NCBI GenBank assembly: GCA_963832025.1
Contig: CAWHSF010000003.1
Coordinates: forward strand, 294,606-358,605
From: Candidatus Nomurabacteria bacterium
Lineage (GTDB): Bacteria; Patescibacteriota; Minisyncoccia; Phycocordibacterales; UBA9973
Direction: 5' to 3'
Length of the DNA: 64,000 bases
The position numbers were made by a program, and so were the translations under genes. The notes under the pieces were generated by a model. The model made no database searches. It was not told the origin of the DNA and worked only from the letters and a program-made list of their open reading frames with translations. Positions 2,806-55,736 of the stretch are shown here, in pieces (within the stretch, counting starts at the first letter, position 1; each line of letters opens with the position of its first letter).

Positions 2806-3075
2806 ATGAGCTCAATCATCAAAAACCCAAGAGTTACCGAAAAGGCTTCATTTGCCGCCGAACAAAATGTTTACACTTTTGATATTTCGCAATCTGCAAA
2901 CAAAAGAGAAATCAAAAAAGCTGTCTTTACTCTTTATAAAGTGCATCCAGTAAAAGTAAATGTTATGACTATTCCAAGAAAGAAAACAATGTCCCAGGGA
3001 AAGAAGGGCATGCGTGGTGGAGGAAGAAAAGCTTTTGTATATTTAAAAAAGGGAGATAAAATAGAATTTATATAA
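2806..3075 (+). CDS. rplW: 50S ribosomal protein L23 (upstream ATG at 2782 lies inside palindromic repeat, so 2806 preferred)
   Basis: SSIIKNPRVTEKASFAAEQNVYTFDISQSANKREIKKAVFTLYKV L23 signature. Confidence 0.88.
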   Translation: MSSIIKNPRVTEKASFAAEQNVYTFDISQSANKREIKKAVFTLYKVHPVKVNVMTIPRKKTMSQGKKGMRGGGRKAFVYLKKGDKIEFI

Positions 3076-3914
3076 TGAAAACATACAAACCGACAAGCAA
3101 ATCAAGAAGGCAAATGACCAATGTGAGCTACAGGGGAGTTTTGAGCAATACCACACCCACCAAATCCCTGACCCATGGTTTTAAAAGAAACGTCGGTCGC
3201 AACAGCCAAGGACGTATCACCATGCGCCACAAGGGAGCCGGACACAAGCGCTTGTATCGAGACGTCGATTTTATTTACAATAAAAAAAACATTCCTGCAA
3301 AAATAGTTTCTGTAGAATACGACCCAAATCGTTCCGCATTTATCGGTCTGGCAGTTTACAAAGACGGAGAAAAAAGATACGTCGTATTGCCGAAATCAGT
3401 CAAACCAGGCGATTCTTTTGTCGTTTCCGAAAAAGCCGAACTAAAACCGGGCAACAGACTCCCTTTGCAATTTATTCCGGTCGGAACTTTTGTTTACAAT
3501 GTTGAAATCAAACCGATGGGTGGCGCAAAGATCGGACGCTCTGCAGGAATTTTCGCCCAAGTTGTCGCAAACGCCGACGGATATACAAATATTAAAATGC
3601 CTTCTACGGAAATTCGCAAAATAAACGAAAAGTGCTGGGCTTGCGTCGGAACTGTTTCCAACGAGGAACATCACTTGGAGAATTATGGCAAGGCAGGACG
3701 CAGTCGCTGGAAAGGAATTCGTCCGACAGTTCGCGGAACAGCTATGAACCCAGTAGACCATCCATACGGCGGAGGTGAAGGACGCCAAGGGCGCGGAACC
3801 AAAAGACCAAAGACTATGTGGGGTAAAGTTACCGGCGGACGTAAAACCCGCGGACCAAAGAAATACTCGAACGTCTTTATTGTTTCTCGCCGAAAAACAG
3901 GAAAGAATAAATAG
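3075..3914 (+). CDS. rplB: 50S ribosomal protein L2
   Basis: GRNSQGRITMRHKGAGHKRLYR...GTAMNPVDHPYGGGEGRQ L2 signature. Confidence 0.95.
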   Translation: MKTYKPTSKSRRQMTNVSYRGVLSNTTPTKSLTHGFKRNVGRNSQGRITMRHKGAGHKRLYRDVDFIYNKKNIPAKIVSVEYDPNRSAFIGLAVYKDGEKRYVVLPKSVKPGDSFVVSEKAELKPGNRLPLQFIPVGTFVYNVEIKPMGGAKIGRSAGIFAQVVANADGYTNIKMPSTEIRKINEKCWACVGTVSNEEHHLENYGKAGRSRWKGIRPTVRGTAMNPVDHPYGGGEGRQGRGTKRPKTMWGKVTGGRKTRGPKKYSNVFIVSRRKTGKNK

Positions 3915-3955
3915 TTCGACGAACTCACTACAAGTAAAAAATAATAATACTTAAA

Positions 3956-4012
3956 ATTGGGACGTCGGACACCTGCTTTAGCAGATGTCCGACGTCTGGA
4001 GGTTTATGCACT
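3956..4012. repeat. palindromic repeat family A, copy A2 (island left border)
   Basis: GACGTCGGACACCTGCTTTAGCAGATGTCCGACGTCTGGAGGTTTATGCAC. Confidence 0.8.
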
Positions 4013-4098
4013 TGTGTAATTTTGCATAAATGTTATAAATGCATTCATATAGTTCTATTCATTCTGGCTTCATAATCCACTCAGAGGAGTGTTACACC

Positions 4099-4290
4099 TT
4101 GAAAGAAAGTGCCACAGTACTTCGCAACAACAACCAAAAGGCGGCCGTTGCGGCCAAGGTGTTTAAGGGGGGCGTTCAAAAACCCCAAAGACAAGATGTT
4201 GCTGCTGACATTCGTCGGCAGTGGGGCAAACCGAGTCACAGCAAAAGTCGCAACTGGCGTTGGGGAGTGGCGCTGGCTGGCATTGCATAA
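4099..4290 (+). CDS. hypothetical small basic protein (~63 aa, TTG start after GAGGAG RBS); first cassette of S10-operon island
   Basis: RBS gaggag 8 nt upstream of TTG; preceded by TTGCAT-17-nt-TATAAA promoter-like unit; followed by hairpins 4296-4360. Confidence 0.25.
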   Translation: MKESATVLRNNNQKAAVAAKVFKGGVQKPQRQDVAADIRRQWGKPSHSKSRNWRWGVALAGIA

Positions 4291-4451
4291 ATAAAGACAG
4301 CCGGAGCTGTCTAAAGAAAGGAGGGAAGGGCGTCGGGATTAACTCGGCGCCCTCTTTACATTTACTTGCATTGTCATAAATAAATGTTATAAATAAAAAC
4401 GAATTCGTAATTAGTGAGCTACGGATAGTAGCTCGCTTTGGGAGAGAAGAA

Positions 4452-4649
4452 ATGGCCAACAGAGGTTCAGCAGTTTTACCGCATCGTAAGCAAGTGAAAA
4501 CCACCATGACAACCTTGCCCCGGCAAACACAGGAACCAGATGTTGTGGAAGAGATCATCGGTCGAGTTTTTCACGGCGGACACAAGCCACAACTTTATCC
4601 ACCCAATCCACGACAACAGCAAGCAGCCGAAGAATCTGCAGAAGAGTAG
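4452..4649 (+). CDS. hypothetical 65-aa protein (second island cassette)
   Basis: ATG preceded by GGGAGAG RBS, own promoter-like TTGCAT..TATAAAT at ~4368-4398, strong terminator 4663-4715. Confidence 0.35.
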   Translation: MANRGSAVLPHRKQVKTTMTTLPRQTQEPDVVEEIIGRVFHGGHKPQLYPPNPRQQQAAEESAEE

Positions 4650-4662
4650 ATCGAATTTCAAC

Positions 4663-4715
4663 GGGCGGGGAGTCGATGTTTCGACACCCCGCCCGCATTT
4701 GCGTTTACTCGATTT
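4663..4715 (+). terminator. intrinsic terminator after 65-aa ORF
   Basis: GGGCGGGGagtcgatgtttcgacaCCCCGCCC + T-rich tail. Confidence 0.6.
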
Positions 4716-4728
4716 TAATATTTTATTT

Positions 4729-4780
4729 CCAGACGTTGGACATCTGCTAAAGCAGGTGTCCAACGTCAGTCCAACGTCTC
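4729..4780. repeat. palindromic repeat family A, copy A3
   Basis: CCAGACGTTGGACATCTGCTAAAGCAGGTGTCCAACGTCagtCCAACGTCTC. Confidence 0.8.
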
Positions 4781-4929
4781 TTCACTTTTGTATTCTTGTG
4801 TTATATTTTTTGTATGGTATAAATATAAGTAGAACTAGTTCCTGCCGCCTAGCAGGGAGGCGGTACAACCTCAAAGCAAAAAAAACAAAGTGGATGCGTA
4901 AGCACACGTAAGCCATTGAGGGTCAGGTA

Positions 4930-5109
4930 ATGCAGAAAGAAGTAAACAAAAAAGCTGATTTGTCTACGACGCCTGTCGTCAAGGTTTCCAGTAGCATCGA
5001 ACCGGTTGGAGCAGCAGAAGCAGCAGGGACATACTGCATCGTGTTCGCTCCGCCGGAAAACCGGAAACCGCGGAACTTGATCGTGTACGACAATCGAGGC
5101 CACTACTAA
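4930..5109 (+). CDS. hypothetical 59-aa peptide MQKEVNKKADLSTTPVVKVSSSIEPVGAAEAAGTYCIVFAPPENRKPRNLIVYDNRGHY (below ORF-track cutoff)
   Basis: GAGGG RBS 8 nt upstream of ATG; upstream promoter-like TGgTATAAAT ~4803-4815 and 5'UTR hairpin; intrinsic terminator 5120-5176 immediately downstream. Confidence 0.45.
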   Translation: MQKEVNKKADLSTTPVVKVSSSIEPVGAAEAAGTYCIVFAPPENRKPRNLIVYDNRGHY

Positions 5110-5119
5110 AGTGGCCACA

Positions 5120-5176
5120 GGGGTTCATCGGCAAGCCAGCTGATGAACCCCACCGTTATTTTTACCCGATTTTTTA
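5120..5176 (+). terminator. intrinsic terminator after 59-aa peptide gene
   Basis: GGGGTTCATCggcaagccagctGATGAACCCC + TTATTTTTaccCGATTTTTT. Confidence 0.65.
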
Positions 5177-5195
5177 TAATTTTAAATTGCGAAAC

Positions 5196-5223
5196 TTGCT
5201 TTTATTTTAAAGTATGTTATACT
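5196..5223 (+). promoter_or_regulatory. sigma70-like promoter TTGCTT-16-TATACT driving candidate sRNA
   Basis: -35 5196-5201, -10 5218-5223. Confidence 0.4.
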
Positions 5224-5229
5224 TTATGG

Positions 5230-5420
5230 TAGATAGCTCCTCCGTGCTTTTTGTGGAGGCCTGTCTCCTGGCAATTCGTGAGTGGCTCCTCCACTCCTCA
5301 GGAGTTGAGCGCTTTGGCAACACTCTGCGGATGCTAGGTTGTAACATTGCTCCATTTTTCTATTCTCCTTGGGTCTGAATTCGGGTTTTGCCTCCCGTAA
5401 TATCAGACCCTATTTTTTTT
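5230..5420 (+). ncRNA. candidate ~190-nt structured sRNA of unknown family inside S10-operon island
   Basis: No ORF; own promoter; multiple nested hairpins (CCTCC/GGAGG, GAGTGG-ctcct-CCACTC, CCTG..CAGG); ends in GGGTCTGA...TCAGACCC stem plus T8 terminator 5371-5420. Confidence 0.4.
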
Positions 5421-5433
5421 ACCTAATTTTTAC

Positions 5434-5511
5434 TTGACCCGGTAGTAGAACTTTGCGATATGTAAAATTTGCATCAAAGATGCGTCGCAAAGTCTCACTA
5501 CTGGGTTGACT
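5434..5511. repeat. repeat family C copy C1 (long hairpin TTGACCCGGTAGTAG...CTACTGGGTTGAC; 3' end = -35 box)
   Basis: ttgacccggtagtagaactttgcgatatgtaaaatttgcatcaaagatgcgtcgcaaagtctcactactgggttgact. Confidence 0.8.
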
Positions 5512-5533
5512 TTTCAATACTTTGTGCTATGAT
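5506..5533 (+). promoter_or_regulatory. promoter TTGACT-16-TATGAT; -35 box contributed by 3' end of repeat C1
   Basis: -35 5506-5511, -10 5528-5533, followed by GGAG RBS and ATG 5556. Confidence 0.5.
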
Positions 5534-5555
5534 ATTAGAGAAGGAGATTTGCACC

Positions 5556-5792
5556 ATGTCGACCCAAGCAACAAAGGAGCGGGTTGGCCCGTTCCTCTTA
5601 ATCGGTTCCCTGTTTGCGGTGCCGATAGGTCTAGCGTTCTTTTACGAGGGTTTCAAAATCCAGGGAGACACATTACTGTCCCCGTCAAAGCTGACATGCT
5701 TTGTAGCTGGCGGGCTAATGGCTCTCTTCGGCATCATCTTTTGCTGGAGACACAACAACGACGGGAGGTTGGACAATGAAAGGTGGCGCTAG
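5556..5792 (+). CDS. small 2-TM membrane protein (78 aa), paralog of following ORFs
   Basis: GGAG RBS; two hydrophobic helices; internal similarity CFVAGGLMALFGIIFCW ~ FWVPGSLLALVGGIYLLY in next ORF. Confidence 0.5.
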   Translation: MSTQATKERVGPFLLIGSLFAVPIGLAFFYEGFKIQGDTLLSPSKLTCFVAGGLMALFGIIFCWRHNNDGRLDNERWR

Positions 5793-5976
5793 GAGGGGTA
5801 CTAGTTTCAACGTGGGTGCTGCAGTTGCGGCGGTGGCGCTCGCGATGGTAGTTTTCATCCACGACGATGCCGCCAAAAGCGCCCCTGACTTTATCGTCAG
5901 ATTTTGGGTGCCTGGTAGCCTCCTAGCTCTTGTGGGAGGAATCTACCTGCTCTACCGCCTCATCGTTCACAAGTGA
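5776..5976 (+). CDS. small 2-TM membrane protein (66 aa), overlaps previous ORF, paralogous
   Basis: RBS-like aggagg; hydrophobic; terminator 5990-6036 downstream. Confidence 0.45.
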   Translation: MKGGARRGTSFNVGAAVAAVALAMVVFIHDDAAKSAPDFIVRFWVPGSLLALVGGIYLLYRLIVHK

Positions 5977-5989
5977 TCGTTTTCACAGA

Positions 5990-6036
5990 CCGGTACCTGC
6001 GCAAAGACGCGGGGCCGGTTTTCGCTTTTTATTTAA
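5990..6036 (+). terminator. intrinsic terminator (repeat D copy 1)
   Basis: accggtacctgcgcaaagacgcggggccggttttcgctttttattt. Confidence 0.55.
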
Positions 6037-6039
6037 TTT

Positions 6040-6067
6040 GACTTTCTTGGATTTTATGCTATGATCT
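6040..6067 (+). promoter_or_regulatory. promoter TTGACT-16-TATGAT (near-copy of 5506 promoter incl. gaggagat RBS)
   Basis: -35 6040-6045, -10 6062-6067. Confidence 0.5.
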
Positions 6068-6083
6068 TCTTGAGGAGATCTTT

Positions 6084-6551
6084 ATGACAACAACAAGGTT
6101 CGGAGGTTCTCTCTGCATCGGTAGAGAGGAACTTGTAATAGCTGCGGTGTTTGTTACCATGGGCTTGGCCTGCCGTGTATCGACAAAAAGCAGTCGTGAA
6201 GCTGCCACAATGGTAATTGTGGTGGGGGTAGTCGCATTGTTAGCCTTACTATGGCAGGGGGTGAGAAAGGCCATTTCCTCCATTCTTCTCCCAACGTGGC
6301 GTGTGGTACCCAGGTTCGCAATCGCTTCGTGGAAGTTTGCGAGGAAGGGTCCGCGATACTGGATTCAGATTGCGGCGGTTGGGCTAATCTTCATCGGGGC
6401 TTTTGTCCTTGTGAGGTTGGATTTCAGCAAAGGAACGTCACTGGCGACGCTCCTTTCTCAAGTGTTAGCGAGCTTCTCTATACTTATTGGAGCGGGTTCG
6501 TACGTTTATTGTATAGGAGTGTTCAAGTTTCCAAACAGGTCCCAAGAGTAA
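6084..6551 (+). CDS. 4-TM membrane protein (155 aa), looks like tandem fusion of the 2-TM unit
   Basis: gaggagatctttATG RBS; 4 hydrophobic helices; terminator 6570-6617 is a copy of the 5990-6036 terminator. Confidence 0.55.
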   Translation: MTTTRFGGSLCIGREELVIAAVFVTMGLACRVSTKSSREAATMVIVVGVVALLALLWQGVRKAISSILLPTWRVVPRFAIASWKFARKGPRYWIQIAAVGLIFIGAFVLVRLDFSKGTSLATLLSQVLASFSILIGAGSYVYCIGVFKFPNRSQE

Positions 6552-6569
6552 ATCGTTTCGTTTCAATTC

Positions 6570-6617
6570 GACCGGCACCCGCGCAAAGACGTGGGGCCGG
6601 TCTTCGCTTTTTATTTT
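6570..6617 (+). terminator. intrinsic terminator (repeat D copy 2)
   Basis: accggcacccgcgcaaagacgtggggccggtcttcgctttttatttt, ~90% identical to 5990-6036. Confidence 0.55.
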
Positions 6618-6736
6618 GAATATGCTATGTTTCTCAGTAGGATAGTTCTTTTGGAGAGCGGTCTCCTGACAGGAACTATCTCGTGTGATAACGGGCTCTA
6701 AGCGTTTAAGCGCGTCCGTTACCACACATTCCGCAA

Positions 6737-6780
6737 CCGGGAGCCAGCTGCTTTTGGCAGGCTCCCGGTCTTTTTATTTT
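6737..6780 (+). terminator. intrinsic terminator closing the island
   Basis: ccgggagccagctgcttttggcaggctcccgg + T-run. Confidence 0.6.
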
Positions 6781-6839
6781 ACGTGAAAAAATGGTTTTTT
6801 TATTTCAGCTTTTCGGAATAAGGGCAATATAAAATCTAG

Positions 6840-6868
6840 TTGACAATTTTTCCTTATTTGCTACTATG
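6840..6868 (+). promoter_or_regulatory. internal promoter TTGACA-17-TACTAT re-initiating the r-protein operon at rpsS
   Basis: -35 6840-6845, -10 6863-6868, 28 nt upstream of rpsS ATG. Confidence 0.5.
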
Positions 6869-6896: not shown

Positions 6897-7247
6897 ATGA
6901 CTCGAAGTATCAAAAAAGGATTAAATGTCGACGAAAAACTTCTCTCAAAGATTGTGGGCAAAAACCCGCTCGAGACACCAATGGTAAAAACTTGGAAAAG
7001 AGCCTGCGTCATTTCTCCGGAGATGCTGGGTTTTACTTTTGGTGTGCATAATGGCAAAACCCATGTGGAAGTTTTGGTGACCGAAGATATGGTCGGGCAC
7101 AGACTCGGAGAATTTTCCCCAACCAAGAAATTTATTAAACACGGAGGAAAGATGCAGAAAGAGCTTGAACAGAAGAAAAAAGAAGCGGAGATTACTGCTG
7201 CCAAAGGTGCGACAGCGGCTGCCGAAGATGCTAAGGGTAAAAAGTAG
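6897..7247 (+). CDS. rpsS: 30S ribosomal protein S19 with ~25-aa Lys/Glu/Ala-rich C-terminal extension
   Basis: RSIKKGLNVDEKLL...HNGKTHVEVLVTEDMVGHRLGEFSPTKKF S19 signature. Confidence 0.93.
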   Translation: MTRSIKKGLNVDEKLLSKIVGKNPLETPMVKTWKRACVISPEMLGFTFGVHNGKTHVEVLVTEDMVGHRLGEFSPTKKFIKHGGKMQKELEQKKKEAEITAAKGATAAAEDAKGKK

Positions 7248-15215: not shown

Positions 15216-16100
15216 TTAGGCAGATTCCTCTTTAGGCCTGTTCGGATTTCCTAGTCCTTTTTCGTCTACTCCAACATCAAGTAGAATAAAAGTTCCCGTG
15301 TTGAAATTGCAGAATAAATTTGCATACAAATCACCAGTATTAACACCAGCCCTTCTCAATGTGTTCTCAATTCTTTGAGCTTTTATTTTTAACTCCGCAA
15401 ACCTCATCTGGCTTGCTTCTGAACGAAAGTCATTTCTTGAAAATCCGTCTATCGAGTTTCCGTAATCATCTATGCCACCTAAGGACAAGGTGTCAAAGGG
15501 AACAAATCCTGCTTGCTCTATTTCTTGCCATTCTGAAACGTACCAGCTTTCATTTTTATCTTGATATCCCAATTTTGCCTCTACCACTTTAATAAAATTT
15601 AGATCCTTTAATGCTTCTTTGGCTTTAATTGTGCTTTCAAATTCAGTAAAACCAGGATTTATTGTAACAAAGCTCCTTTTTACAAAAAAAGAATGACCCT
15701 TAAAATTTATTTTCAAATAATCACAATCGTCAACCCTAACACTTTTTTTATTTTCTGATTCCAATTCTCTCTTTGATTTGCCTAGCATTGCAACTTCTAG
15801 GTCAGAGTTTTCATCCGTGAAAGTTTTGCCTGGTGAAATAAAAGTACCTCTTCCTTCTGTTGCGGGTTCTCCGTCTGCTTGTAACCATTGTCCACTTTCT
15901 TTGTCATATGACACTTCTGTGTTTTTTATTGCAATAGGCTGTGGTTCGTATTCTTCAGAAGCGCGGGTCGCCAGAGCAATGGCTTCTTTTATTATCCCTG
16001 GACTTTCTCGCAACATTTTTCTGAACTCTAAATCATCATAGGCGATTTTTCTACTTTCGGTTTTGATTGATCTTGTTGTTGGAGTTTTTTCAGTAGGCAT
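15216..16100 (-). CDS. hypothetical 294-aa protein, co-operonic with adk-like kinase (3-nt gap)
   Basis: Long ORF; weak GRG..x..DLE stretch but no firm family assignment. Confidence 0.55.
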   Translation of the reverse strand: MPTEKTPTTRSIKTESRKIAYDDLEFRKMLRESPGIIKEAIALATRASEEYEPQPIAIKNTEVSYDKESGQWLQADGEPATEGRGTFISPGKTFTDENSDLEVAMLGKSKRELESENKKSVRVDDCDYLKINFKGHSFFVKRSFVTINPGFTEFESTIKAKEALKDLNFIKVVEAKLGYQDKNESWYVSEWQEIEQAGFVPFDTLSLGGIDDYGNSIDGFSRNDFRSEASQMRFAELKIKAQRIENTLRRAGVNTGDLYANLFCNFNTGTFILLDVGVDEKGLGNPNRPKEESA

Positions 16101-16103
16101 GAT

Positions 16104-16715
16104 TTATTTTCCTATCTTCTTCTTATATTCCTCTATTTTTTTCAAAATATCTTTGGTAACTTTCACGATAGGCTGATTGCCGTTGATTATATTCATTTTT
16201 CCTAAACTTTGATAATATTTTACGGTTTTACCGACTTGGTCTTTGTGCCACTTGATGCGCGCAGCGATGATTTTTTTATCATCCAAAACTTTGTAAATTT
16301 CTTTCATGTTTCCTTTTTTTCTCGCGAGCGAACGTCTGTAGACTTCTTTATCCGGCAGGGTAATGTAAAAAGCTAAAAAATCTTCTTTGCGTTCAGTCAT
16401 CAATTTCTTCATTAGCTGCGCTTCGGGCTTTAACCTGCCTCCCAAAAAAAGCAAGCTTTTATTTTTTGGTTTGTTATTTATTTCTTTCACCAAAAATCTT
16501 TGCATCAGAATTGTTGGCAGAGGCTTGCCCTTACCGACAGTTTTTCTCGCCCATTCTCCGTCCTTGCTTTTTGCTTTTAAAAGCTTACGGGAAAATACTC
16601 CGGTTTCCACAAATTTTAAGGCATACTTCTTTTTCAGGATATTTGCTTGTGTTTCCTTGCCGGAAGTAATCATGCCAAGCAGAACGATATTAAATCCAAG
16701 TTTTTTCATACACAT
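16104..16715 (-). CDS. adenylate kinase-like nucleoside monophosphate kinase (divergent second Adk paralog)
   Basis: P-loop LLGMITSGKETQ, C-terminal HKDQVGKTVKYYQSLGKMNIINGNQPI resembles Adk CORE end. Confidence 0.65.
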   Translation of the reverse strand: MCMKKLGFNIVLLGMITSGKETQANILKKKYALKFVETGVFSRKLLKAKSKDGEWARKTVGKGKPLPTILMQRFLVKEINNKPKNKSLLFLGGRLKPEAQLMKKLMTERKEDFLAFYITLPDKEVYRRSLARKKGNMKEIYKVLDDKKIIAARIKWHKDQVGKTVKYYQSLGKMNIINGNQPIVKVTKDILKKIEEYKKKIGK

Positions 16716-16741
16716 ATTAAAGCACTTTTACAAATAAAATT

Positions 16742-16798
16742 CACCTCACCCGTCTTTGGCACCCTCTCCTTGGCAAGGAGAGGGGCTGGGGTGGGGTG
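16742..16798. repeat. repeat family F copy F1 (between divergent adk genes)
   Basis: cacctcacccgtctttggcaCCCTCTCCTTGGCAAGGAGAGGGgctggggtggggtg. Confidence 0.75.
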
Positions 16799-16834
16799 TT
16801 TGATTTTTGTGCCAAATTTCTGTATTGTGTATAT

Positions 16835-17422
16835 ATGACTCCACAAACGTTCGTATTTTATGGTATTGCTGGTGCTGGGAAGGGAACCCAGATTAAACTC
16901 CTAACGGAACTTCTAAAAAATAAAGGCGGACTAGAGACTGTCTATGCATCTCCTGGCAATGAATATAGAAGGATAACACAATCTGACGATTACATAGGTT
17001 CTTTAGTGAAAGGCCCTCTTTCTAGAGGTGAGCTTCTTCCAGGATTTTTAACCGATTCAATCATAGCTAATATTTTTATTTCTTTTTTAACTCCGGAAAA
17101 AAATTTAATTGCGGATGGATATCCTCGTGCAGTGGATCAATCTGTTAGTTTTGAGAAAATGATGGGATTTTTTGAAAGAAAAAATGTGAAAATTATTTAT
17201 ATTGAAATATCCAAAGAAGAAGCAATAAAGAGATTAAAACTAAGAGGAAGACATGACGACACCGACGAAGGAATAGCTAAAAGATTTGACGAATATGTAA
17301 AAAGCGTAGTTCCATCAATGAATTATTTTAAAGAGAAAGAAGGATATAAAATATATACTATTAATGGAGAGCAGAGCGTGGAGGATGTGCACAAAGAGAT
17401 TGTATCTGCTGTCGAACTTTAA
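16835..17422 (+). CDS. adk: adenylate kinase
   Basis: FVFYGIAGAGKGTQ P-loop; RGRHDDTDE LID region; canonical position after secY. Confidence 0.9.
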   Translation: MTPQTFVFYGIAGAGKGTQIKLLTELLKNKGGLETVYASPGNEYRRITQSDDYIGSLVKGPLSRGELLPGFLTDSIIANIFISFLTPEKNLIADGYPRAVDQSVSFEKMMGFFERKNVKIIYIEISKEEAIKRLKLRGRHDDTDEGIAKRFDEYVKSVVPSMNYFKEKEGYKIYTINGEQSVEDVHKEIVSAVEL

Positions 17423-18193
17423 ATGATAATAATTAAAACACCGGAACAAATAGAAAAAATTCGCGAAGGCTGTAAAAACCTCGCAATTGTTTTGCATAAG
17501 GTAAAAGAAAAAGTTGCTCCAGGAATTTCCACCAAGGACTTGGATATTTACGCGGAAAAATTAATTCGTGAAATGGGTGATACCCCTGCTTTTTTGAATT
17601 ATCGTCCGGAAGGTGCTTCCACGCCATTCCCCGCGACACTTTGTGTTTCCGTGAATGATGAAGTGGTGCACGGTATTCCTAGCAAAAATAGAATTTTTAA
17701 AGAAGGTGATATAGTTTCGCTTGATTTGGGAACCAACCATCAAGGTTTTTTTACCGATATGGCTTTGACTGTGCCGGTCGGAAAAGTGAGTGACAAGAAT
17801 TTAAAGCTCTTGGAAGTTACCGAGAAATCTTTACAAGTTGGCATAAGTGTAGCTGTCGCAGGAAATACTGTTGGCGATATCGGTTATGCAATTGAAAGTT
17901 ATATCCACTCGGAAGGGCAATATGGAATCGTGGAAGTTCTGTCTGGGCATGGTGTGGGCGTAGCTATCCATGAGGACCCTTATATTCCAAACTTTGGGAA
18001 ACCAGGTAAAGGAGCCAAGCTTTTGCCAGGAATGATTATTGCCATTGAACCGATGGTAAATTTAGGGACTAAAAATGTCACCATAGATGAAGATGATTGG
18101 ACTTTTCGTACTGCTGATAAAAAACCCTCCGCGCATTTTGAACATACTATTTTGATTACCGAAGGCGAGCCAGAAATTCTGACACAAATATAA
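17423..18193 (+). CDS. map: type I methionine aminopeptidase
   Basis: SVNDEVVHGIP...SLDLG...GHGVG..HE pita-bread metal ligands. Confidence 0.93.
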   Translation: MIIIKTPEQIEKIREGCKNLAIVLHKVKEKVAPGISTKDLDIYAEKLIREMGDTPAFLNYRPEGASTPFPATLCVSVNDEVVHGIPSKNRIFKEGDIVSLDLGTNHQGFFTDMALTVPVGKVSDKNLKLLEVTEKSLQVGISVAVAGNTVGDIGYAIESYIHSEGQYGIVEVLSGHGVGVAIHEDPYIPNFGKPGKGAKLLPGMIIAIEPMVNLGTKNVTIDEDDWTFRTADKKPSAHFEHTILITEGEPEILTQI

Positions 18194-18339
18194 AAACTCT
18201 TTCTTGGCGTACTTTTTATAAAGCAATCTATCTCCGCAAGCTTGCGGAGCGAACTGCTCGGCTACCCGCCTGTGCAAGGCTTTCTAAAAAGTACGCCTTC
18301 GACGAGTTTTTAATTTGCTTCTTTTATTGTATAATTTAG

Positions 18340-20442
18340 TTGATGGAACCATCCTTTTTTAAGGAAATGCCGAAGTTTAAGACTCCCGAGGAGGAGCTCG
18401 ATTATTTGCGCGCGCATGTGAAAGCACGTGAAGAAGAATTAATCAGCATTGGGCACATAGAAAATGCAGGAGACAATGCCGCCTCCGAAGTTATCGGCGC
18501 ATATAAAAATATACCGGCAGAGAAACTAATTCATAAAGATAATATTATAAAAGAAAAAGAAGCCAAAGGTATCGTTTTGGCTCTGCGCCCGGAGACTCAC
18601 GACAGTGTGATGGAGGAACTTTTGGGGATTGTAGTTACTAAAGGAGTTCGCAATGCTCTTTCGGTGGCAGAAGAGATGGATAATCCCCATATTGATGATG
18701 ATTTTCACAGAATTCTCATTCAATATTTAAAAACCGGACAAACCATGTTGGATTTTAAAGAAGGCTCGCCGGTTTACAAAGCTCTCAATATGACTCTTTT
18801 TGAAATTACGCTTCCGCCTCCGGCTGAAGGAGGAGATGCAGCGAAAGGTTTTAAAGAATTTATCGGCGCGATGGAACAATTTTACGCCGGCATGCAATCT
18901 ATCGGCGAAGGTAAGTATAACGAAAAAGAAAACTATTTTGTTTTGGAGGTGGGGCTTGGGATGAATACCGACGAGGTAGTGGTTTATGCGGCAATTCCAA
19001 ACAAACATCTATCTCTTTTTGAAAAACAAATCTTGGCTTTTTATCACAATGCAAAGATTCGTGAAGCGACTGACGACTACAATGTTTTCAACGAAAATGG
19101 CAATTCTGTCGGTGCTTATGCTGTCCTTTCTGAGCGTGGAGTGATGCCGATAAAAACCTATGACAATATTGACCATGACCCGATGAATCCGATTTTAAAT
19201 GTTTTTTCTCAATTAAAAACGATCGGCGAAGGTGCCGCGATTCAATTGGTGGTTGTGCCAGCCGGTGAAAAGTTTATCAATGAGTTTCATATGATTCTGG
19301 ACGATGTGAAAGATGGTTATTCGGTCAAACATGCATCCGATAATTTTTATAAGTTCAACAAAGCCTTTTTGAAAGTGGGCAAAGATTTTGTTTTTGGACA
19401 TAAAGAGAAAGAAGAAGAGCCCAAAGAAAAATATATGAAAGGCAGACGCGCGGTAGATGAGGGCGCGGCGGAAAAAATCGGCAACAAAATAAAAAGCACA
19501 ATCATGAAAGCTAATATTCGCGTGGTTGCCTCCGGGCAAACGCTCGAACGTGCCGAAGCTATTTTGCGCGAGATAGAATCTTCCTTCAATCAATTTTCGG
19601 AAGCAGCTAGCAACTCTTTTGTTTTTGAACAAATGAGAGGCAGTGAACTGAAACAACTCTTTCACGATTTTTCTTTTCGTACATTTAAGCCTGATAAGAC
19701 GTTGCCGTTAAATTTAAAAGAATTATCTTCAGTCTTTCATTTCCCAGTAGGTATTGATAGTCAACCACAATTGAAAGAAGCGAAAGCCGGTATCGCTCCG
19801 GCTCCGATAGAGATGGGGCAAACGGGAATTATACTCGGAATAAACAGCTATCGGGGCAGAGATACGGAAATTCACTTGGCGAGAGAAGACCGCATGAGAC
19901 ATTTTTATGTTATCGGTCAGACAGGTACAGGTAAAACGAATATCATGCTCAACATGATTACGCAAGATATAAAAAATGGAGATGGTTGCTGTTATATTGA
20001 CCCGCACGGTACCGATATTCAAACAATTCTTTCTCGTATACCTAAAGAGCGTATTGACGATGTGATTTATTTTGACCCAGCCTATACTGCACGACCGATG
20101 GGGCTTAACATGTTGGAATATGACCCGAGATATCCCGAACAGAAAACATTCGTGGTAAACGAAATGATGGGAATTTTCAATAAACTTTTTGATATGAAAG
20201 TGGGCGGTGGAGCGATGTTTGAACAATATTTTAGAAACAGCGCCTTTCTTGGTGATGGAAGACCCGGAATCCGGCTCAACCTTGCTGGAAATTACCCGTG
20301 TCTTGGCCGACAAAGAATTTCGCGATATGAAACTTGCCCGATGCAAGAACCCAATCATCAAACAATTTTGGATTTCTGCCGAGCAAACAACCGGAGACCA
20401 GTCGCTCGCGAACTTCGTGCCTTATATTTCTTCCAAGTTTGA
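18340..20442 (+). pseudogene. P-loop ATPase of VirB4/TraD/HerA-FtsK (AAA_10/DUF87-like) class with ~450-aa N-terminal domain; N-terminal ORF fragment of a gene interrupted by two compensating 1-nt frameshifts (~20228 +1, ~20446-20479 -1)
   Basis: Walker A HFYVIGQTGTGKTN, YIDPHGT, FDP motifs; true continuation is in frame 2 (20207-20479) then frame 1 (20467-21111). Confidence 0.7.
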
Positions 20443-20466
20443 TAACTTTATTTCAGTAACGATATT

Positions 20467-21111
20467 ATGCGTCCGGTAGTGCTTCAACAAAACTCCGTTT
20501 TCAATTTTAGAAAAATCATGGACGAGAAAAAAATTCTTTTAGTTAATCTTTCCAAAGGAAGATTGGGAGATATTAACGCAAACCTTATCGGTTTGGTATT
20601 GGTCGGCAAGATTCAAATGGCGGCGCTTTCCCGCGTGGATATGTTTGGTAAACCAATGAATGATTTTTATCTATATATCGATGAGTTCCAAAATGTCACC
20701 ACTGATTCCATCGCTTCCATTTTGTCTGAAGCAAGAAAATACAGACTCTCGTTAAATATTGCGCATCAATATATCACTCAACTCGAAGATAATATCAAGA
20801 ATGCTGTCTTTGGGAATGTCGGCTCGATGGCTGTTTTCCGTGTCGGCACCGAAGATGCGACATTTTTGGAACCAAAATTTAAACCGCAATTTACTGCGCA
20901 AGATATAACCAAGCTTGATAATTACAATGCTTATGTAAATATGCTGGTAAATGGTCAGCCAACCAAACCTTTCAATTTAAAAACTCTCGCGCCAGAGGTA
21001 GGCAATGCGGAAATCGTGGATAGTCTAAAAGAACTTTCTTATGTAAAATTTGGTCGTGACCGCGCCGAAGTCGAAGCCGAAATCATGGCGCGATATAGTA
21101 CGATGGAATAA
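20467..21111 (+). pseudogene. C-terminal fragment of the same ATPase (Walker B YIDEFQN region)
   Basis: LYIDEFQNVTTDSIASIL...LNIAHQYITQLED; contiguous with 18340-20442 after frame correction. Confidence 0.7.
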
Positions 21112-21198: not shown

Positions 21199-21783
21199 AT
21201 GAAACATCCAAAAGAAGAAAGAACATATGTCATGGTCAAGCCAGACGGAGTTCGTAAGGGTCTGACAGGGGAGATTATTAGTCGCTTTGAACAGCGAGAT
21301 TTGAAAATTGTGGCGTTGGAAATGTTTAAACCTTCGCACGACCAATTAGACAATCATTATCCAAAAGACGAGGCTTGGATTACTCGACTCGGCAAAAAAA
21401 CTCTTTCTACCTATGAAAAATATGGCTATGACGCGATGACGGATTTTGGCACAATTGACCCGGTTGTTATCGGTCCAGATATCCGCAAATGGCTGATTGA
21501 TTATATGGAATCTTCTCCATTAGTAAAGATGATTGTGCAAGGAGTTCATGCCGTAGACGTAGTCAGAAAAATTGCTGGTCCAACGATGCCTTATTTGGCA
21601 GAAGTCGGAACAATTCGCGGAGATTTTTCCATTGATAGTCCGGCTCTTGCGAATAAAGAAAAACGCGCGGTGATGAATATTGTACACTGTTCCGAAACTC
21701 CGGAAGAAGCGGAACATGAAATCAAGCACTGGTTTGGCGATATGAAAACTTTTGAATATAAACGCTTTGGAGTAGATGAGTAA
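21199..21783 (+). CDS. ndk: nucleoside diphosphate kinase with ~50-aa internal insertion (194 aa)
   Basis: RTYVMVKPDGVRKGLTGEIISRFEQRDLKIVALEM...NIVHCSE (active-site His). Confidence 0.88.
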   Translation: MKHPKEERTYVMVKPDGVRKGLTGEIISRFEQRDLKIVALEMFKPSHDQLDNHYPKDEAWITRLGKKTLSTYEKYGYDAMTDFGTIDPVVIGPDIRKWLIDYMESSPLVKMIVQGVHAVDVVRKIAGPTMPYLAEVGTIRGDFSIDSPALANKEKRAVMNIVHCSETPEEAEHEIKHWFGDMKTFEYKRFGVDE

Positions 21784-21786
21784 AAC

Positions 21787-22335
21787 ATGTACGAAGTTGA
21801 AGTAAAAGCAAGGTTAAAAAATAGGCAAGAAATTGTAAAAAAACTTGAATCTTTAGGCTGTAAATTTGGAGAAGAACTTCACCAAATTGACCATATTTAT
21901 TTTCCTGAAGGGCTTACTTTTCCTCCACCAATTGGCACTGGTATTTTGAGAGTTCGCAATCAAGGTGATAAATATTTTTTCACCTTAAAAATTTCTCAGT
22001 CTGGCAGACAGGATTCAATTGAAAGAGAATTGGAAGTAAAAGATGGAGAAATGATGATGGAAATTATAAAACTTTTAAAATATCAAGAAGCTCCAACCGT
22101 AAATAAGAAAAGAACTAAAACAAAGTACAAAGATATGGTAATTGAACTTGATACTGTGAAAGATTTGGGAGAATTCATTGAAGTGGAAAAAATTGTCACA
22201 GAAGAAAATCCTGAAGAAAGAAAAAAAATTCAGCAAGACTTAGCTGACTTTATTATTGCTCTAGGTGTTTCCAAAGAAGACCTGATGGTAAACAGCAAAT
22301 ACGATATTATGCTTTTTGAGAAAAATAAAAAATAA
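21787..22335 (+). CDS. CYTH-domain protein (triphosphate tunnel metalloenzyme / class IV adenylyl cyclase-like)
   Basis: N-terminal YEVEVKARL (ExExK), LRVRNQGDKYFFTLK, IEVEKIV motifs. Confidence 0.7.
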   Translation: MYEVEVKARLKNRQEIVKKLESLGCKFGEELHQIDHIYFPEGLTFPPPIGTGILRVRNQGDKYFFTLKISQSGRQDSIERELEVKDGEMMMEIIKLLKYQEAPTVNKKRTKTKYKDMVIELDTVKDLGEFIEVEKIVTEENPEERKKIQQDLADFIIALGVSKEDLMVNSKYDIMLFEKNKK

Positions 22336-22339
22336 ATTT

Positions 22340-22885
22340 ATGGCTGTTAAAATAACTTATTTTGTGCACGGAACAACCACGGACAACGAGAAAGACTTGT
22401 CCACGGGTTGGCTGGGAGGAGAATTATCGGCAAAAGGAATTGGACAAGCCAAAGAACTCGGAACTCTTGTGGCAGATAAACATTTTGATGTTGTGTTTTG
22501 TTCTGACTTAAAAAGAGCGGTTGATTCTGCCGAGCTTGGTTTCGGAGATAAATATGAAATTATTCCAGATGCTCGACTTCGTGAATGTAATTATGGAGAT
22601 AATAATGGGAAATCTATGTTCCTGTGGATAAATTCAAAGACTAAATTTATAGACACCCCGTTTCCTAAGGGAGAAAGTTATTTAGATGTTGAAAAGAGAA
22701 TAAAAGATTTTTTGGATTTTTTAAAAAATAATTATGATGGGAAAAGTGTTGCCATTGTTGCGCATCAAGCTCCGCAACTCGCCTTGGATGTTTTATTAAA
22801 AGGAAAAACTTGGGAACAAGCTTTTGTCGAAGATTGGCGAAACACCCACAGTTGGCAACCAGGATGGGGATATCAATTAGACTAA
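22340..22885 (+). CDS. histidine phosphatase family protein (phosphoglycerate-mutase-like)
   Basis: ITYFVHGTTTDNE (RHG-like catalytic His), RECNYG; start 22340 preferred over 22316. Confidence 0.75.
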   Translation: MAVKITYFVHGTTTDNEKDLSTGWLGGELSAKGIGQAKELGTLVADKHFDVVFCSDLKRAVDSAELGFGDKYEIIPDARLRECNYGDNNGKSMFLWINSKTKFIDTPFPKGESYLDVEKRIKDFLDFLKNNYDGKSVAIVAHQAPQLALDVLLKGKTWEQAFVEDWRNTHSWQPGWGYQLD

Positions 22886-22911
22886 ATTATAATTTCAACT
22901 ATAATCTTTTT

Positions 22912-23355
22912 ATGGATAAAAAAATTTGTGTATATTGTACTAATCCAAGCGTGAAGGAGAGAGAAATAATAAGCAACGAACTTGCGTGGGCTTTTCCGAC
23001 AAATATCCCGATTGTTCCTGGACATATTTTAATATGTCCGATAAGGTGTGTAGCCGATTTTAATGATATGACAAAAGAAGAGGTGACAGCCATCTTTGCT
23101 TTACAAAAAAAGTTAAAAAAAGCCTTGCAAGAAGCATTTAATGCCGAAGGTTTTAATTACGCTTGGAATGAAAACAAAGTGGCTGGGCAAGCAGTCCCTC
23201 ACTTTCATTTGCATATGTTGCCGAGAAAAGAAGGAGACACCGGAATTACTGAATATGATCCAAGAAAATTTCTTTACAGACCAGGGAGTCGAGAAACATC
23301 TCCCGACGAGGAATTAATTGCCGTAGTAGAAGGAATAAAAAAACATTTAGAATAA
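22912..23355 (+). CDS. HIT-family nucleotide hydrolase/transferase
   Basis: HFHLHMLPR histidine triad; start 22912 preferred (22810 start overlaps upstream gene). Confidence 0.85.
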   Translation: MDKKICVYCTNPSVKEREIISNELAWAFPTNIPIVPGHILICPIRCVADFNDMTKEEVTAIFALQKKLKKALQEAFNAEGFNYAWNENKVAGQAVPHFHLHMLPRKEGDTGITEYDPRKFLYRPGSRETSPDEELIAVVEGIKKHLE

Positions 23356-23363
23356 TTATTCTT

Positions 23364-23906
23364 ATGCAAGAAATTGAAACAAAAATTTTGGATGTTAATA
23401 CTGAAGAGATAAAAAAGAAACTAAATTCACTCGGCGCTGAGGAAATTTTAAACACTCGTCTAACGGTAGACTGGTACGGTCCCAAGGGTTTGACGCACGA
23501 CGGAGATGATCCATGGTTTTTAAGAATCAGGACAGATAGAGAGGGGAACAGCGAAGCAACTTGGAAGGGAAATCGTAATTTTAGCGGAGCTTCAAGTTCG
23601 CACAAAGAAATAAATTTGAAAGTTTTAGACAAAAATGCTCTTGGAAATATGTTTTTGGAATTCGGAATGGAGCTTTATGCGCACCAAGAGAAAGATAGAA
23701 TTTCTTTTTCATTAAAAAATTGGCGTTTTGATTTAGACCAGTATCCAGGGATGCCAGCATATCTAGAAATTGAAGGAACGAGTGAAGAAAGTGTGCAAGA
23801 AGCAATAAAATTACTTGGATTGGAAAATAAAATGGCTACACCAAAAGGCGAAAGAGCTGTGATAAAAGATGATTATAATTTGAATTGGTTTGATATGCGT
23901 TTTTAA
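23364..23906 (+). CDS. second CYTH-domain protein
   Basis: EIETKILDV (ExExK), LRIRTD, YLEIEGTSEE motifs. Confidence 0.7.
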   Translation: MQEIETKILDVNTEEIKKKLNSLGAEEILNTRLTVDWYGPKGLTHDGDDPWFLRIRTDREGNSEATWKGNRNFSGASSSHKEINLKVLDKNALGNMFLEFGMELYAHQEKDRISFSLKNWRFDLDQYPGMPAYLEIEGTSEESVQEAIKLLGLENKMATPKGERAVIKDDYNLNWFDMRF

Positions 23907-25705: not shown

Positions 25706-26324
25706 ATGAATTTAAGTGAATTGAATAATAAACACGGACACAACCAAATCAAAATCTGTGTCTCCGGTGCAGCGGAGACGGGTCATTGCGGAATCGGAGC
25801 GTTAGACTTAGCTAAAGAACTAGGACGGGAAATTGCTCGCCAAGGCGCGGTGTTGGTGACGGGAGCAACGACAGGATTTCCTTTCTGGGCTGCGATGGGC
25901 GCCAAAGAAGAAGGCGGAATTTCCATCGGTATCTCTCCGGCAGCTTCGGAGCGTGAACACGTGGAAGTTTACAAACTCCCGATAGATTACATGGATTTGA
26001 TTATTTATACCGGCTTTGGTTACCCCGGTCGCGATCTTTTACTGACTCGTAGTTCTGATGCTGTCGTACTGCGGTTGTGGGCGAATCGGCACGATTCATG
26101 AGTTTACGGTTGCCTTTGAAGACCAAAAACCAATCGGTATATTTGAAGGTCCTTGGGAGATGAGCGCGGAACTCGAAGAAATAATAGCGAAAGGACATCG
26201 CCCGGATCCGAAAATTGTTCACAGCCCCGACCCCAAAAAACTTCTTGAAGAAGTGATTGCTTTGGTGAAGAAAGACAAAATTGAATACAAAGCTTCCAAA
26301 CCCTCTAGTTCTCCTGTGCAATAA
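25706..26324 (+). CDS. TIGR00725/LOG-like (SLOG Rossmann) protein, interrupted by 1-nt frameshift near 26068
   Basis: ICVSGAAETG...VLVTGATTGFPFWAAMGA; second frame continues CGCGRIGTIHEFTVAFEDQKPIGIFEG. Confidence 0.65.
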
Positions 26325-26384: not shown

Positions 26385-26726
26385 ATTTAGCTGCTGCTAC
26401 GACTTTTGCAAATGTTTTTGGATGATGTTCGGCAAAGTCGGAAAGAATTTTTCTGTCCAGCATTATGTTTTTCTTATGTAAACCATCGATTAACTTGGAG
26501 TATGATATTCCGAGTTCTCTGGCACCAGCATTTATTTTAATATTCCAAAGTTTGCGATTATGTGATTTCTTGTCTCTGCGATGCGCGAAAGAATAACTCC
26601 GGCATGCAAGAGCGCGTCTTTTGCCTGACGTTCCTTGGTACTGCGTCCATGGCGCATTCCCTTAGTTTGCTTCAAAACACTTCTCCTTCTTTTTAATGCA
26701 TGTACTCCTTTTTTTACTCTGGTCAT
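26385..26726 (-). CDS. rplT: 50S ribosomal protein L20, reading frame broken by -1 frameshift near 26597 (GGAAG->GGAG)
   Basis: MTRVKKGVHALKRRRSVLKQTKG then frame 3 SYSFAHRRDKKSHNRKLWNIKINAGARELGISYSKLIDGL matches L20 throughout. Confidence 0.85.
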
Positions 26727-28156: not shown

Positions 28157-28173
28157 CTCCGCTACAATATTTG

Positions 28174-28563
28174 GGGATGCAAGGCATAGACAGTTGGCCT
28201 ATTTGCATTGATGCATACCGAGTATGAACATAATCTCGTAAAAATTTGTTCAACAGCTAATTGCAAAATCAGCTTTTACAGCAATGCTTTCGCCTTACTT
28301 CGGTAATTCGTTAGCTCTTGCTCCAGCTTTCGCGTAAGCCAAGGTTGGTGTCTCTCGTATAGACTTCCGATATATACGTAGAGGCATAATATTATCGGGA
28401 TAGGGAAGAAGACCGCTCTGACTTTTTTCCAAAACAAAAGAGCTCGATTAAAAAATATTTGGCTCGTTTAAGAATTTTTTAATTTAAAACAAAAAGCGAG
28501 CTACGTATGTAGACTTCTCTGCTATAACCTTCTGCACTGGGATTCAATTTCCCACATCTCCAC
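28174..28563 (+). ncRNA. ssrA: tmRNA (transfer-messenger RNA), one-piece
   Basis: Adjacent to smpB; 5' GGGGAUG pairs with 3' CAUCUCC+A (G3:U wobble = Ala identity); T-arm UGGGA-UUCAAUU-UCCCA; PK1 region GAUGCAUACCGAG...CUCGUAAAAA resembles E. coli GGUGCAUGCCGAG...CUCGUAAAAA; candidate tag ORF GCA(28263)...SLALAPAFA-UAA(28337); -10 TACAAT at 28164. Confidence 0.75.
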
Positions 28564-28609
28564 AATTTTTTTATTTTACTACCATTGTTTTTGATGGTAT
28601 TATTTTAAT

Positions 28610-31178: not shown

Positions 31179-31252
31179 CCGTCCTTAGCTCAGCTGGTTA
31201 GAGCACAGAGCTTATACCTCTGGGGTCCTTGGTTCGAATCCAAGAGGACGGA
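31179..31252 (+). tRNA. tRNA with anticodon UAU (Ile2-type AUA decoder), C1:G72 acceptor end
   Basis: Cloverleaf: acceptor CCGUCCU/AGGACGG, D GCUC/GAGC, anticodon stem CAGAG/CUCUG loop CUUAUAC, T CUUGG-UUCGAAU-CCAAG. Confidence 0.75.
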
Positions 31253-39277: not shown

Positions 39278-39364
39278 CGGAGAGAGAGGGATTCGAACCC
39301 TCGGTCCTTTTAAGGGGACGACAGTTTAGTAAACTGTTGGTTTAAACCACTCACCCATCTCTCC
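39278..39364 (-). tRNA. type-II (long variable arm) tRNA, Ser-like, anticodon loop UUACUAA (apparent ACU anticodon, atypical)
   Basis: rc: GGAGAGA-UG-GGU..ACC-A-ACAGU-UUACUAA-ACUGU-long arm-CGAGGGUUCGAAUCCCUC-UCUCUCC-G. Confidence 0.6.
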
Positions 39365-53912: not shown

Positions 53913-55052
53913 ATGAATAATAAAAATTTGCTGAAAAATCTTTTGGCGAGCTTTAATAAGGGGAAGGGCGGAGATAGTGCTGTCGGCGTTGATATAGGGT
54001 CTTCGGCAATCAAAGTAGTTGAGATAAAAAGAAAAGGAGGTAAGGCAGTGCTAGAGACTTACGGAGCGATAGAGCTCGGTCCTTATGGTGACATGGATGC
54101 TGGACGTGTTACAAATTTGCCGATTGATAAAATTGTTTTAGCTTTAAAAGAAGTTCTCAAGCAGTCCAGCGTAGAGAATACTTCTTTGGCCATGTCGATT
54201 CCCATTCAATCAAGTTTGATTTTTACTATTGAGCTTCCAGAAACCGTCGGCGATACTGAAATAGCTGCCATTGTCCCCACTGAAGCTCGCAAATATATTC
54301 CAGTTCCGATTACCGAAGTTTCAATTGATTATTTTGTGTTACCCAAAAAAGAAGCTTCTTTTTCGGAAATGAATGCTGAGCCAAGCAGTGCCGATAAAGC
54401 TAAAGCGCAGACAGAAAAAATAAATGTTTTGGTAATTGCTACGCAAAACGATGCCGTGGCAAAATATCGTTCAATTATTTCGCAGTGCAATTTTGATGCT
54501 TCCTTTTTTGAAATTGAGATTTTCTCTTCTATTCGCGCAAATTTTGAGCACGAATTATCGCCAGTCTTACTGGTGGACTTTGGCGCATCTCGCACCAAGC
54601 TTTCGATTGTTGAATTTGGTTTGGTGAAGACCTATCACACGATAGACAGAGGCGGAGCTGATATTTCCAATTCTATCGCGCAGTCTTTAAATATTTCTTT
54701 TACCGAAGCCGAAAAAATGAAAAAGGAGTTTGGGTTTTTTGAAAATCCGGCGGAAAAAAGTTTGAGTGACATCATTAAAATTCATATCAATGATATTTTT
54801 TCCGAGACCAATAATGTTTTGTTGGGATATGAAAAGAAATATAACCGCACTATCAGTAAAATCATATTCACCGGAGGAGGTTCGCTCTTAAAAGGGCTGA
54901 AAGAAGTTGCAGCCAATAATTTTCAAACAGAAATAGAAGTCGGTCGTCCATTTTCCAAAGTCGGTGCACCGGAGTTTTTGGAAAAGGTTTTAGATACCAT
55001 GGGGCCGGAATTTGCCGTTGCTCTCGGACTCGCACTACGAAAATTGCAATAA
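53913..55052 (+). CDS. pilM: type IV pilus assembly protein PilM (actin-like ATPase)
   Basis: VGVDIGSSAIKVVEI... actin fold; precedes pilN/pilO. Confidence 0.85.
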   Translation: MNNKNLLKNLLASFNKGKGGDSAVGVDIGSSAIKVVEIKRKGGKAVLETYGAIELGPYGDMDAGRVTNLPIDKIVLALKEVLKQSSVENTSLAMSIPIQSSLIFTIELPETVGDTEIAAIVPTEARKYIPVPITEVSIDYFVLPKKEASFSEMNAEPSSADKAKAQTEKINVLVIATQNDAVAKYRSIISQCNFDASFFEIEIFSSIRANFEHELSPVLLVDFGASRTKLSIVEFGLVKTYHTIDRGGADISNSIAQSLNISFTEAEKMKKEFGFFENPAEKSLSDIIKIHINDIFSETNNVLLGYEKKYNRTISKIIFTGGGSLLKGLKEVAANNFQTEIEVGRPFSKVGAPEFLEKVLDTMGPEFAVALGLALRKLQ

Positions 55053-55732: not shown

Positions 55733-55736
55733 TTTT

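Follow-up and report, generated by a model that had tools for sequence, protein, structure and literature searches.

Positions 18340-21111 of the window analysed here (a 64-kb stretch of a deposited contig of 430,556 bp) hold a gene for a large ATPase that lies on the forward strand between map and ndk. The gene (18343-21111) comprises about 921 codons and passes from frame 1 into frame 2 and back into frame 1, so that three open reading frames (ORFs) on the forward strand share its coding sequence: ORF1 (18340-20442; frame 1, 700 amino acids), which ends in 63 out-of-frame residues, ORF2 (20207-20479; frame 2, 90 amino acids), and ORF3 (20467-21111; frame 1), which has its own ATG at 20467. 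Since the homologues begin with MEPSFF, the start codon of the ATPase is probably the ATG at 18343.

Gene layout and break sites

The first frame-1 segment (18343-20250, codons 1-636) encodes a DUF8128 domain (approximately codons 1-470) and the beginning of the ATPase core with the Walker A motif or P-loop (19915-19938; GGT CAG ACA GGT ACA GGT AAA ACG, translated GQTGTGKT). It ends at the first break site, CTTG (20248-20251), a +1 event with one surplus base compared to all relatives, which appears as a gap column of one nucleotide in the alignment with the relatives L085, L086 and L081. An earlier note on this DNA had recognised the extra base in CTTGGTG, and a one-base insertion is indeed present in the sequence, but this motif lies at 20248-20254 and thus 20 nucleotides away from the position of about 20228 given there. 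The frame-2 segment that follows (20252-20455; VMEDPESGST...SSKFDNFIS) lies inside an all-alpha insertion of the ATPase domain; it is protein-coding in the alternate frame, as had been proposed, but over 68 codons and not 80.

The second site (20456-20457) reads TTT ATT TCA GT AAC GAT, with the context TCAGTAAC from 20453 on, where the closest relatives have TCA AAC. It consequently represents a +2 insertion, visible as a gap of two nucleotides in the alignment, and not the -1 event that had been assumed. The last frame-1 segment (20458-21111; codons 705-921 plus stop) contains the Walker B motif (20668-20685; TAT CTA TAT ATC GAT GAG, translated YLYIDE) and the C-terminal part of the ATPase. 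The net change of both sites is +3, and removal of three bases yields a single ORF of 2766 nucleotides. The joined protein used in all comparisons below was read in frame 1 up to 20250, in frame 2 from 20252 to 20455, and again in frame 1 from 20458. It carries the motifs HFYVIGQTGTGKTN, YIDPHGT, YFDP and YLYIDEFQN, so that the Walker A, YIDPHGT/FDP and Walker B (YIDEFQN) motifs quoted previously are all present, and the residues G526, G529 and K532 of Walker A as well as D780 and E781 of Walker B are invariant in the family alignment (A1).

Conservation of the reading frame across the breaks

The joined protein is collinear with more than 100 intact proteins of about 921 amino acids from Nomurabacteria, Paceibacterota and Patescibacteria, with 85-93% identity at 100% coverage. 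The earlier proposal of a protein of about 920 residues encoded across three frames is hence borne out, and the match is not due to chance. Over the stretch corresponding to the frame-2 segment, the homologues read ...YFRNSAFLVMEDPESGSTLLEITRVLADKEFRD.KL.RCKNPIIKQFW.SAEQTTGDQSLANFVPYISSKFDNFISNDIMRPVV..., and the stretch of the window is identical to that of the homologue P0003. Since this stretch is conserved in the homologues, it is genuine coding sequence; the possibility that it would lack conservation, which the earlier note had considered, is answered by the identity to P0003 and by the comparison with L086 that follows.

At the nucleotide level, the 68 frame-2 codons differ from those of L086 at 32 positions, all of them synonymous, with no amino-acid difference; across three relatives, 29-32 nucleotide differences are accompanied by zero, one and two amino-acid differences. 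In the 217 codons past site 2, the comparison with L086 yields 81 codons with synonymous changes only and 16 amino-acid changes. The predominance of silent changes in these 68 and 217 codons therefore shows that purifying selection has kept acting on the "broken" frame until now. Such selection past the lesion excludes an old pseudogene. Neither insertion is present in any relative inspected (11 aligned proteins; 84 loci), and at site 2 the relatives have FIS-NDIM, in which a TCN or AGY codon specifies the single Ser.

In the public record, the protein P0121 (691 amino acids; NCBI/ENA, from the 430,556-bp contig) corresponds to ORF1 including its out-of-frame tail of 63 residues, and the error was therefore already present there and did not arise with the window. 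Neither ORF1 nor ORF3 gave a match when its exact product was looked up. Among the GTDB representative genomes, the closest relative shows 86% amino-acid identity, and the closest DNA is 82% identical. The gene is thus absent from any comparator at strain level. A 23-mer of the frame-2 segment had no exact match in the JGI metagenome contigs, from which the strain is evidently absent.

Further breaks and an independent assembly

The ATPase gene is not the only one affected, as at least 13 frameshifts are found in the window, clustered at 20-27 kb and 56-62 kb. They hit the ATPase gene (2), LDcluster4, rplT, pilB (2-3), a response regulator gene, pilT (3), pilC and a pilin gene. The frame changes in LDcluster4 and rplT were revealed by tblastn of the relatives' ORFs against the window, and for both, a second, independent assembly of this strain allows a check. 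Three Logan contigs of the run ERR11523672, obtained by looking up the exact products of map, ndk and smpB, cover 10.7 kb beside the ATPase gene, namely L087 (window 16186-18243; 100% identical), L088 (21092-26779; two single-nucleotide polymorphisms and two indels) and L089 (26750-29798; two single-nucleotide polymorphisms). L088 and L089 overlap by exactly 30 nucleotides (k-1).

Window and Logan contigs thus differ at only six sites, all of them third codon positions. The four substitutions, at 24603 (RNase J-like gene), 26703 (rplT), 27258 and 27273 (both infC), are synonymous and point either to a pair of very closely related strains or to a consensus of mixed origin. The two indels coincide exactly with the breaks of LDcluster4 and rplT, and both genes are intact in L088 (205 and 114 amino acids, respectively). 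In the SLOG/LDcluster4 gene (25706-26291, +), the window has CT-G-C at 26069-26071 with a surplus G where the independent assembly has CTC (Leu), and the break divides the LDcluster4 Pfam domain into positions 2-98 and 102-149. In rplT, which encodes ribosomal protein L20 (26386-26726, -), the window is devoid of the third base of a GGT codon at 26598-26599.

The second cluster of frameshifts falls into a type IV pilus gene cluster (53913-63643, +), which is complete with pilM, pilB with an MshEN domain, a response regulator gene, a pilT-like gene, pilC, two pilin genes and a prepilin peptidase gene. A search of the genome for pilus-like partner genes had been suggested earlier, and such genes are thus found within the window itself, at 53.9-63.6 kb. 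At least nine frameshifts sever Pfam domains at ORF ends in this cluster, with junctions near 57.4, 58.0, 58.57, 59.0, 59.33, 59.72, 59.96, 60.76 and 61.85 kb. PilB is divided into MshEN, profile positions 3-165 of T2SSE, and then positions 166-328; the pilT-like gene is broken into three pieces or more; PilC has its two T2SSF domains on two separate ORFs; one pilin is cut directly past its N-methylation motif; and the response regulator is interrupted at profile position 68 of 111. These frameshifts were recognised solely from a coding-potential scan, from the splits of Pfam domains and from three-frame translations, and with the gene at 55737, a pilin gene and pilM as exact-product queries, no independent contig over the pilus cluster was found.

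Origin of the breaks

From our point of view, the ATPase locus holds a gene that is intact, conserved and present in a single copy in a Nomurabacteria-type (Paceibacterota) genome, and its breaks stem from errors made in the consensus of the deposited 430-kb contig, a reading to which we assign a probability of roughly 0.85. The shape of the sites points in this direction. The CT-T-G of site 1 can be understood as a combination of the Leu codons CTT and CTG or, just as well, as a fusion of TTT-CTT-GTG and TTC-TTG-GTG, and all of these alleles are used by relatives (84 loci). In the same way, the TC-A-GT of site 2 can be read as the Ser codons TCA and AGT sharing the A, both of which are used by relatives. 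The error in LDcluster4, CT+G+C, has the same shape as the ATPase sites, namely two synonymous Leu codons in tandem. By analogy with the two breaks that could be checked, and in view of the selection on the reading frame, the two ATPase sites would very probably be artefacts as well.

As to how such errors might arise, one can imagine that several closely related, co-occurring strains contributed to the consensus of the contig, and that both alleles (or neither) were written into it where these strains differ by synonymous codons. Where synonymous codons differ by more than one base, the insertion part of the change alone would have been applied. The breaks resemble known split-gene artefacts of metagenome consensus sequences in that adjacent ORFs on the same strand lie in different frames, domains are cut at ORF ends and the indels are missing from an independent assembly. 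They differ from these artefacts in that the errors are found outside long homopolymers, on synonymous, strain-variable sites, and are clustered, which we take to argue for strain mixing rather than random read error. The Logan contigs stop on either side of the ATPase gene, so that the assembly graph must branch or lose coverage there, and this agrees with strain variation over the gene. A chimeric join with another lineage was also considered and rejected, as a sliding comparison of the DNA with three relatives gives an even identity (0.75-0.91) along the gene, with no step at either site.

Several points weigh against consensus errors as the origin of the breaks. The Logan contigs that were retrievable end at 18243 and restart at 21092, and hence leave the ATPase gene itself uncovered. 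Furthermore, the reads of ERR11523672 may be those from which the deposited contig was assembled, or may come from another sample that contained a nearly identical strain. A 100%-identical intact protein is missing from the protein collection. The polishing mechanism is one that we infer from the shape of the errors and that was not observed. Lastly, two events that sum to +3 are a mild coincidence under random error, with a chance of about 1 in 3.

The first alternative is that the frameshifts are real but very recent, and that the locus is a fresh pseudogene, either inactivated or truncated to a 699-residue product devoid of Walker B, in a reduced genome. The insertions do stand in a deposited public contig, no intact copy from the same strain was retrieved (none is found among the members of the nine closest protein clusters), and loss of the gene is conceivable, as the coupling-protein homologue of Ca. 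Southlakia epibionticum was not essential for epibiotic growth according to a study on Patescibacteria (Microb Genom 2025, PMC12102498). However, there is no amino-acid drift past the first break, the same contig also breaks rplT, pilB, pilT and pilC, genes that a living cell could not have lost all at once, and the two breaks that can be checked are missing from the independent assembly of the same strain and fall on synonymous polymorphic sites. We consequently regard a recent inactivation as improbable.

Even less probable, in our opinion, is a truly split gene, in which one piece with the N-terminal domain and Walker A and another piece with Walker B would assemble into a working ATPase. 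Although ORF3 has its own ATG at 20467, the essential all-alpha segment of 68 codons would be lost or confined to an orphan ORF of 90 amino acids, ORF1 would keep its tail of 63 out-of-frame residues, and no relative is divided at these points. Programmed recoding, with the ribosome shifting +1 at CTT-G and again at TCA-GT to yield the full-length protein, is hardly credible at all: a programmed +1 shift has a precedent in the CUU-UGA of prfB, slippage from CUU to UUG at the first site would give the homologous ...F-L-V-M..., and both shifts together restore the frame, but neither shift is found in any inspected relative and hence nothing is conserved, the A site at site 1 holds neither a stop nor a rare codon, site 2 offers no X XXY YYZ heptamer, and the identical-looking indels of neighbouring genes vanish in the independent assembly.

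With consensus errors as the preferred origin of the breaks, the earlier implication of a broken gene is most likely wrong, given at least 13 breaks in the window and the absence of the two checkable ones from the independent assembly. The compensating frameshifts themselves matter little, as they are best explained as consensus errors in an ordinary member of a very large known family. It follows from more than a dozen split genes on the contig that calls of pseudogenes or gene loss from this contig should be distrusted until it has been re-polished. Errors on synonymous, strain-variable sites, with two alleles in tandem, further provide a recognisable signature by which similar artefacts could be flagged.

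Protein family and predicted fold

The N-terminal domain had been regarded as unique, which it is not: Pfam DUF8128 (PF26449) is assigned to the N-terminal part of all 120 homologues listed, according to precomputed annotations, and also to ORF1 in the form of P0121, and its predicted fold resembles that of the N-terminal domain of VirB4. The local Pfam copy did not include the PF26449 model, so that the joined protein itself was not matched to it directly. Searches of the literature on DUF8128 and on the run ERR11523672 gave no match. The ATPase family is already known and present in public databases as an uncharacterised family, with 5,045 cluster representatives (50% identity) at E <= 1e-30. 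Some of its members (P0296, P0305, P0308-P0311, P0319, P0325) are 1,200-2,000 amino acids long, with the DUF8128-ATPase unit at the N-terminus and a long C-terminal extension.

The previous assignment to the VirB4/TraD/HerA class of ATPases is supported by profile, Pfam and Foldseek matches. The Pfam matches are marginal, namely PF10412 (TrwB_AAD_bind) with 22.9 against a cut-off of 20.5 over 45 residues only, and PF12696 (TraG-D_C) with 23.3 against a cut-off of 22 at residues 776-836; PF01935 (DUF87/HerA) reaches 20.9 and stays under its cut-off of 23.2. The NCBIfam equivalogs for TraD/VirD4 score 15-45 bits against cut-offs of 250-650 (e.g., 45 against 366), and NF040819 (HerA) scores 14 against a cut-off of 970. 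A profile of 62 family members searched against solved structures matched TrwB (3.6e-7), DotL (7e-6) and HerA (about 0.01). Homologues are annotated in NCBI records as 'TraM recognition domain-containing' or 'type IV secretion system DNA-binding domain-containing' proteins.

For the intact homologue P0001, an AlphaFold2 model reaches a mean predicted local distance difference test (pLDDT) value of 86.7. In this model, the C-terminal part of about 430 residues superposes on TrwB-deltaN70 with a template modelling (TM) score of 0.62-0.69 and a root-mean-square deviation of 4.5-5 Å over about 410 columns (Foldseek, E of about 1e-10), and an all-alpha insertion between Walker A and Walker B (helices 601-713) houses the segment that corresponds to frame 2 of the window. 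At full length, the top Foldseek matches are all TrwK/VirB4 (E of 1e-13, about 900 columns), with TM scores of only 0.25-0.3. When the N-terminal domain is modelled alone (pLDDT 87.3), 14 of 14 PDB matches at E <= 1e-3 are TrwK/VirB4, the best with 1.2e-5 and a TM score of about 0.35. No transmembrane segment was detected: the highest Kyte-Doolittle score over 19 residues is 1.54 and lies in the ATPase core, and the N-terminus is devoid of a hydrophobic segment. As modelled, the protein would combine a VirB4-like two-domain plan with a TrwB-like motor and no predicted anchor, which would place it in the VirB4/VirD4 branch of the FtsK-HerA ATPases.

With type IV coupling proteins (T4CPs) such as TrwB of R388, VirD4, TraD and DotL, the ATPase shares the Walker A and B motifs and, in the predicted structure, a TrwB-like fold with an all-alpha insertion. 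It differs from them in that a domain of about 470 residues without a predicted membrane helix takes the place of their N-terminal membrane helices, and in that no relaxase or VirB genes lie near the gene. Since the membrane anchor as well as relaxase or type IV secretion system (T4SS) neighbours are missing, the ATPase fails the defining tests of a canonical coupling protein. The likeness to VirB4/TrwK would be one of plan, with a large N-terminal alpha/beta domain preceding a TrwB-like ATPase in the model, whereas the identity amounts to 6-11%, the TM score to 0.25-0.35, and no match to the VirB4 sequence family is obtained; VirB3, VirB6 or VirB8 genes are absent from the window and from L081-L084. 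HerA/FtsK-type hexameric translocases belong to the same P-loop superfamily, and Foldseek aligns the model to HerA (4d2i) with TM scores of 0.50-0.52 alongside weak DUF87/HerA sequence matches, but no NurA gene is nearby and the fit is poorer than that to TrwB. A HerA of a defence system was rejected, as the PADLOC matches are weak (a partial mad8 match with 9.5e-12 and HerA with 7e-6) and the genomic context is one of housekeeping genes.

The study cited above reports 5,713 homologues of VirD4-like T4CPs in 2,918 Patescibacteria genomes, of which only 148 are near virB4, and its authors raise the exaptation of such homologues to other functions (PMC12102498). By description, the ATPase would fit the orphan homologues treated there, and the passages of the study consulted here mention neither the DUF8128 domain nor the synteny with map and ndk.

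By analogy with TrwB and VirB4, the protein would most likely form a hexameric ring that uses ATP to push or thread a DNA or protein substrate. Docking or regulation would be the task of the DUF8128 domain, and recruitment would proceed via this N-terminal domain and not via a membrane anchor. One could further speculate about a cytoplasmic, VirB4-like motor that became detached from a T4SS cluster, was fixed in a housekeeping neighbourhood across Paceibacterota and serves DNA uptake or transfer together with type IV pilus/competence machinery or a patescibacterial T4SS, as the earlier note had suggested in part, yet we consider this rather doubtful. The fold, the synteny, the missing anchor and the pilus cluster 33 kb away neither support nor exclude a role in DNA uptake or transfer specifically. 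Irrespective of the window, the DUF8128-ATPase family, with its VirB4-like N-terminal domain fused to a TrwB-like ATPase, its lack of a predicted membrane helix and its place beside map in the majority of relatives, may merit experimental attention.

Genomic context and additional observations

In relatives, the ATPase gene comes after a block of ribosomal protein genes, secY, adk and map, with map directly upstream in 47 of 65 loci and ndk directly downstream in 34 of 66. Since the order map-ATPase-ndk is common in relatives, it represents a conserved state of the lineage and not a local replacement. The earlier note had seen in this position a replacement of the infA-rpmJ-rpsM block, and these three genes indeed do not follow map, but the arrangement is shared with relatives and hence not peculiar to this genome. 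The probe sequences used detected no infA or rpsM in the window. The further neighbourhood is formed by secY, adk, map, ndk, the RNase J-like gene, rplT, infC, smpB, ftsH, a ribonucleotide reductase gene and recG.

Downstream of the ATPase gene (21199-23906, +), the ndk product has 194 amino acids and is only 31% identical to the 158-residue Ndk of the closest relatives. Between ndk and the RNase J-like gene there are four small genes (CYTH, His_Phos_1, HIT, CYTH), which are missing at this place in L081-L084. Directly after smpB, a tmRNA gene is found (28173-28565, +), and two tRNA genes are located at 31179-31252 (+) and 39278-39364 (-), all three being Rfam matches at the gathering threshold.

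Upstream, two genes are inserted between secY and adk (15216-16715, -), which encode a 294-residue protein without a Pfam match and a 203-residue kinase-like protein with weak similarity to Adk. Within the S10 ribosomal operon, about 3 kb (approximately 3950-6850) are inserted between rplB (3075-3914) and rpsS (6897-7247). This insert gave no Pfam match and no Rfam family. Its coding potential is weak, with a GC content of 47% at 4-6 kb compared to about 39% elsewhere, and it contains two membrane-like ORFs (5469-5792 and 6084-6551).

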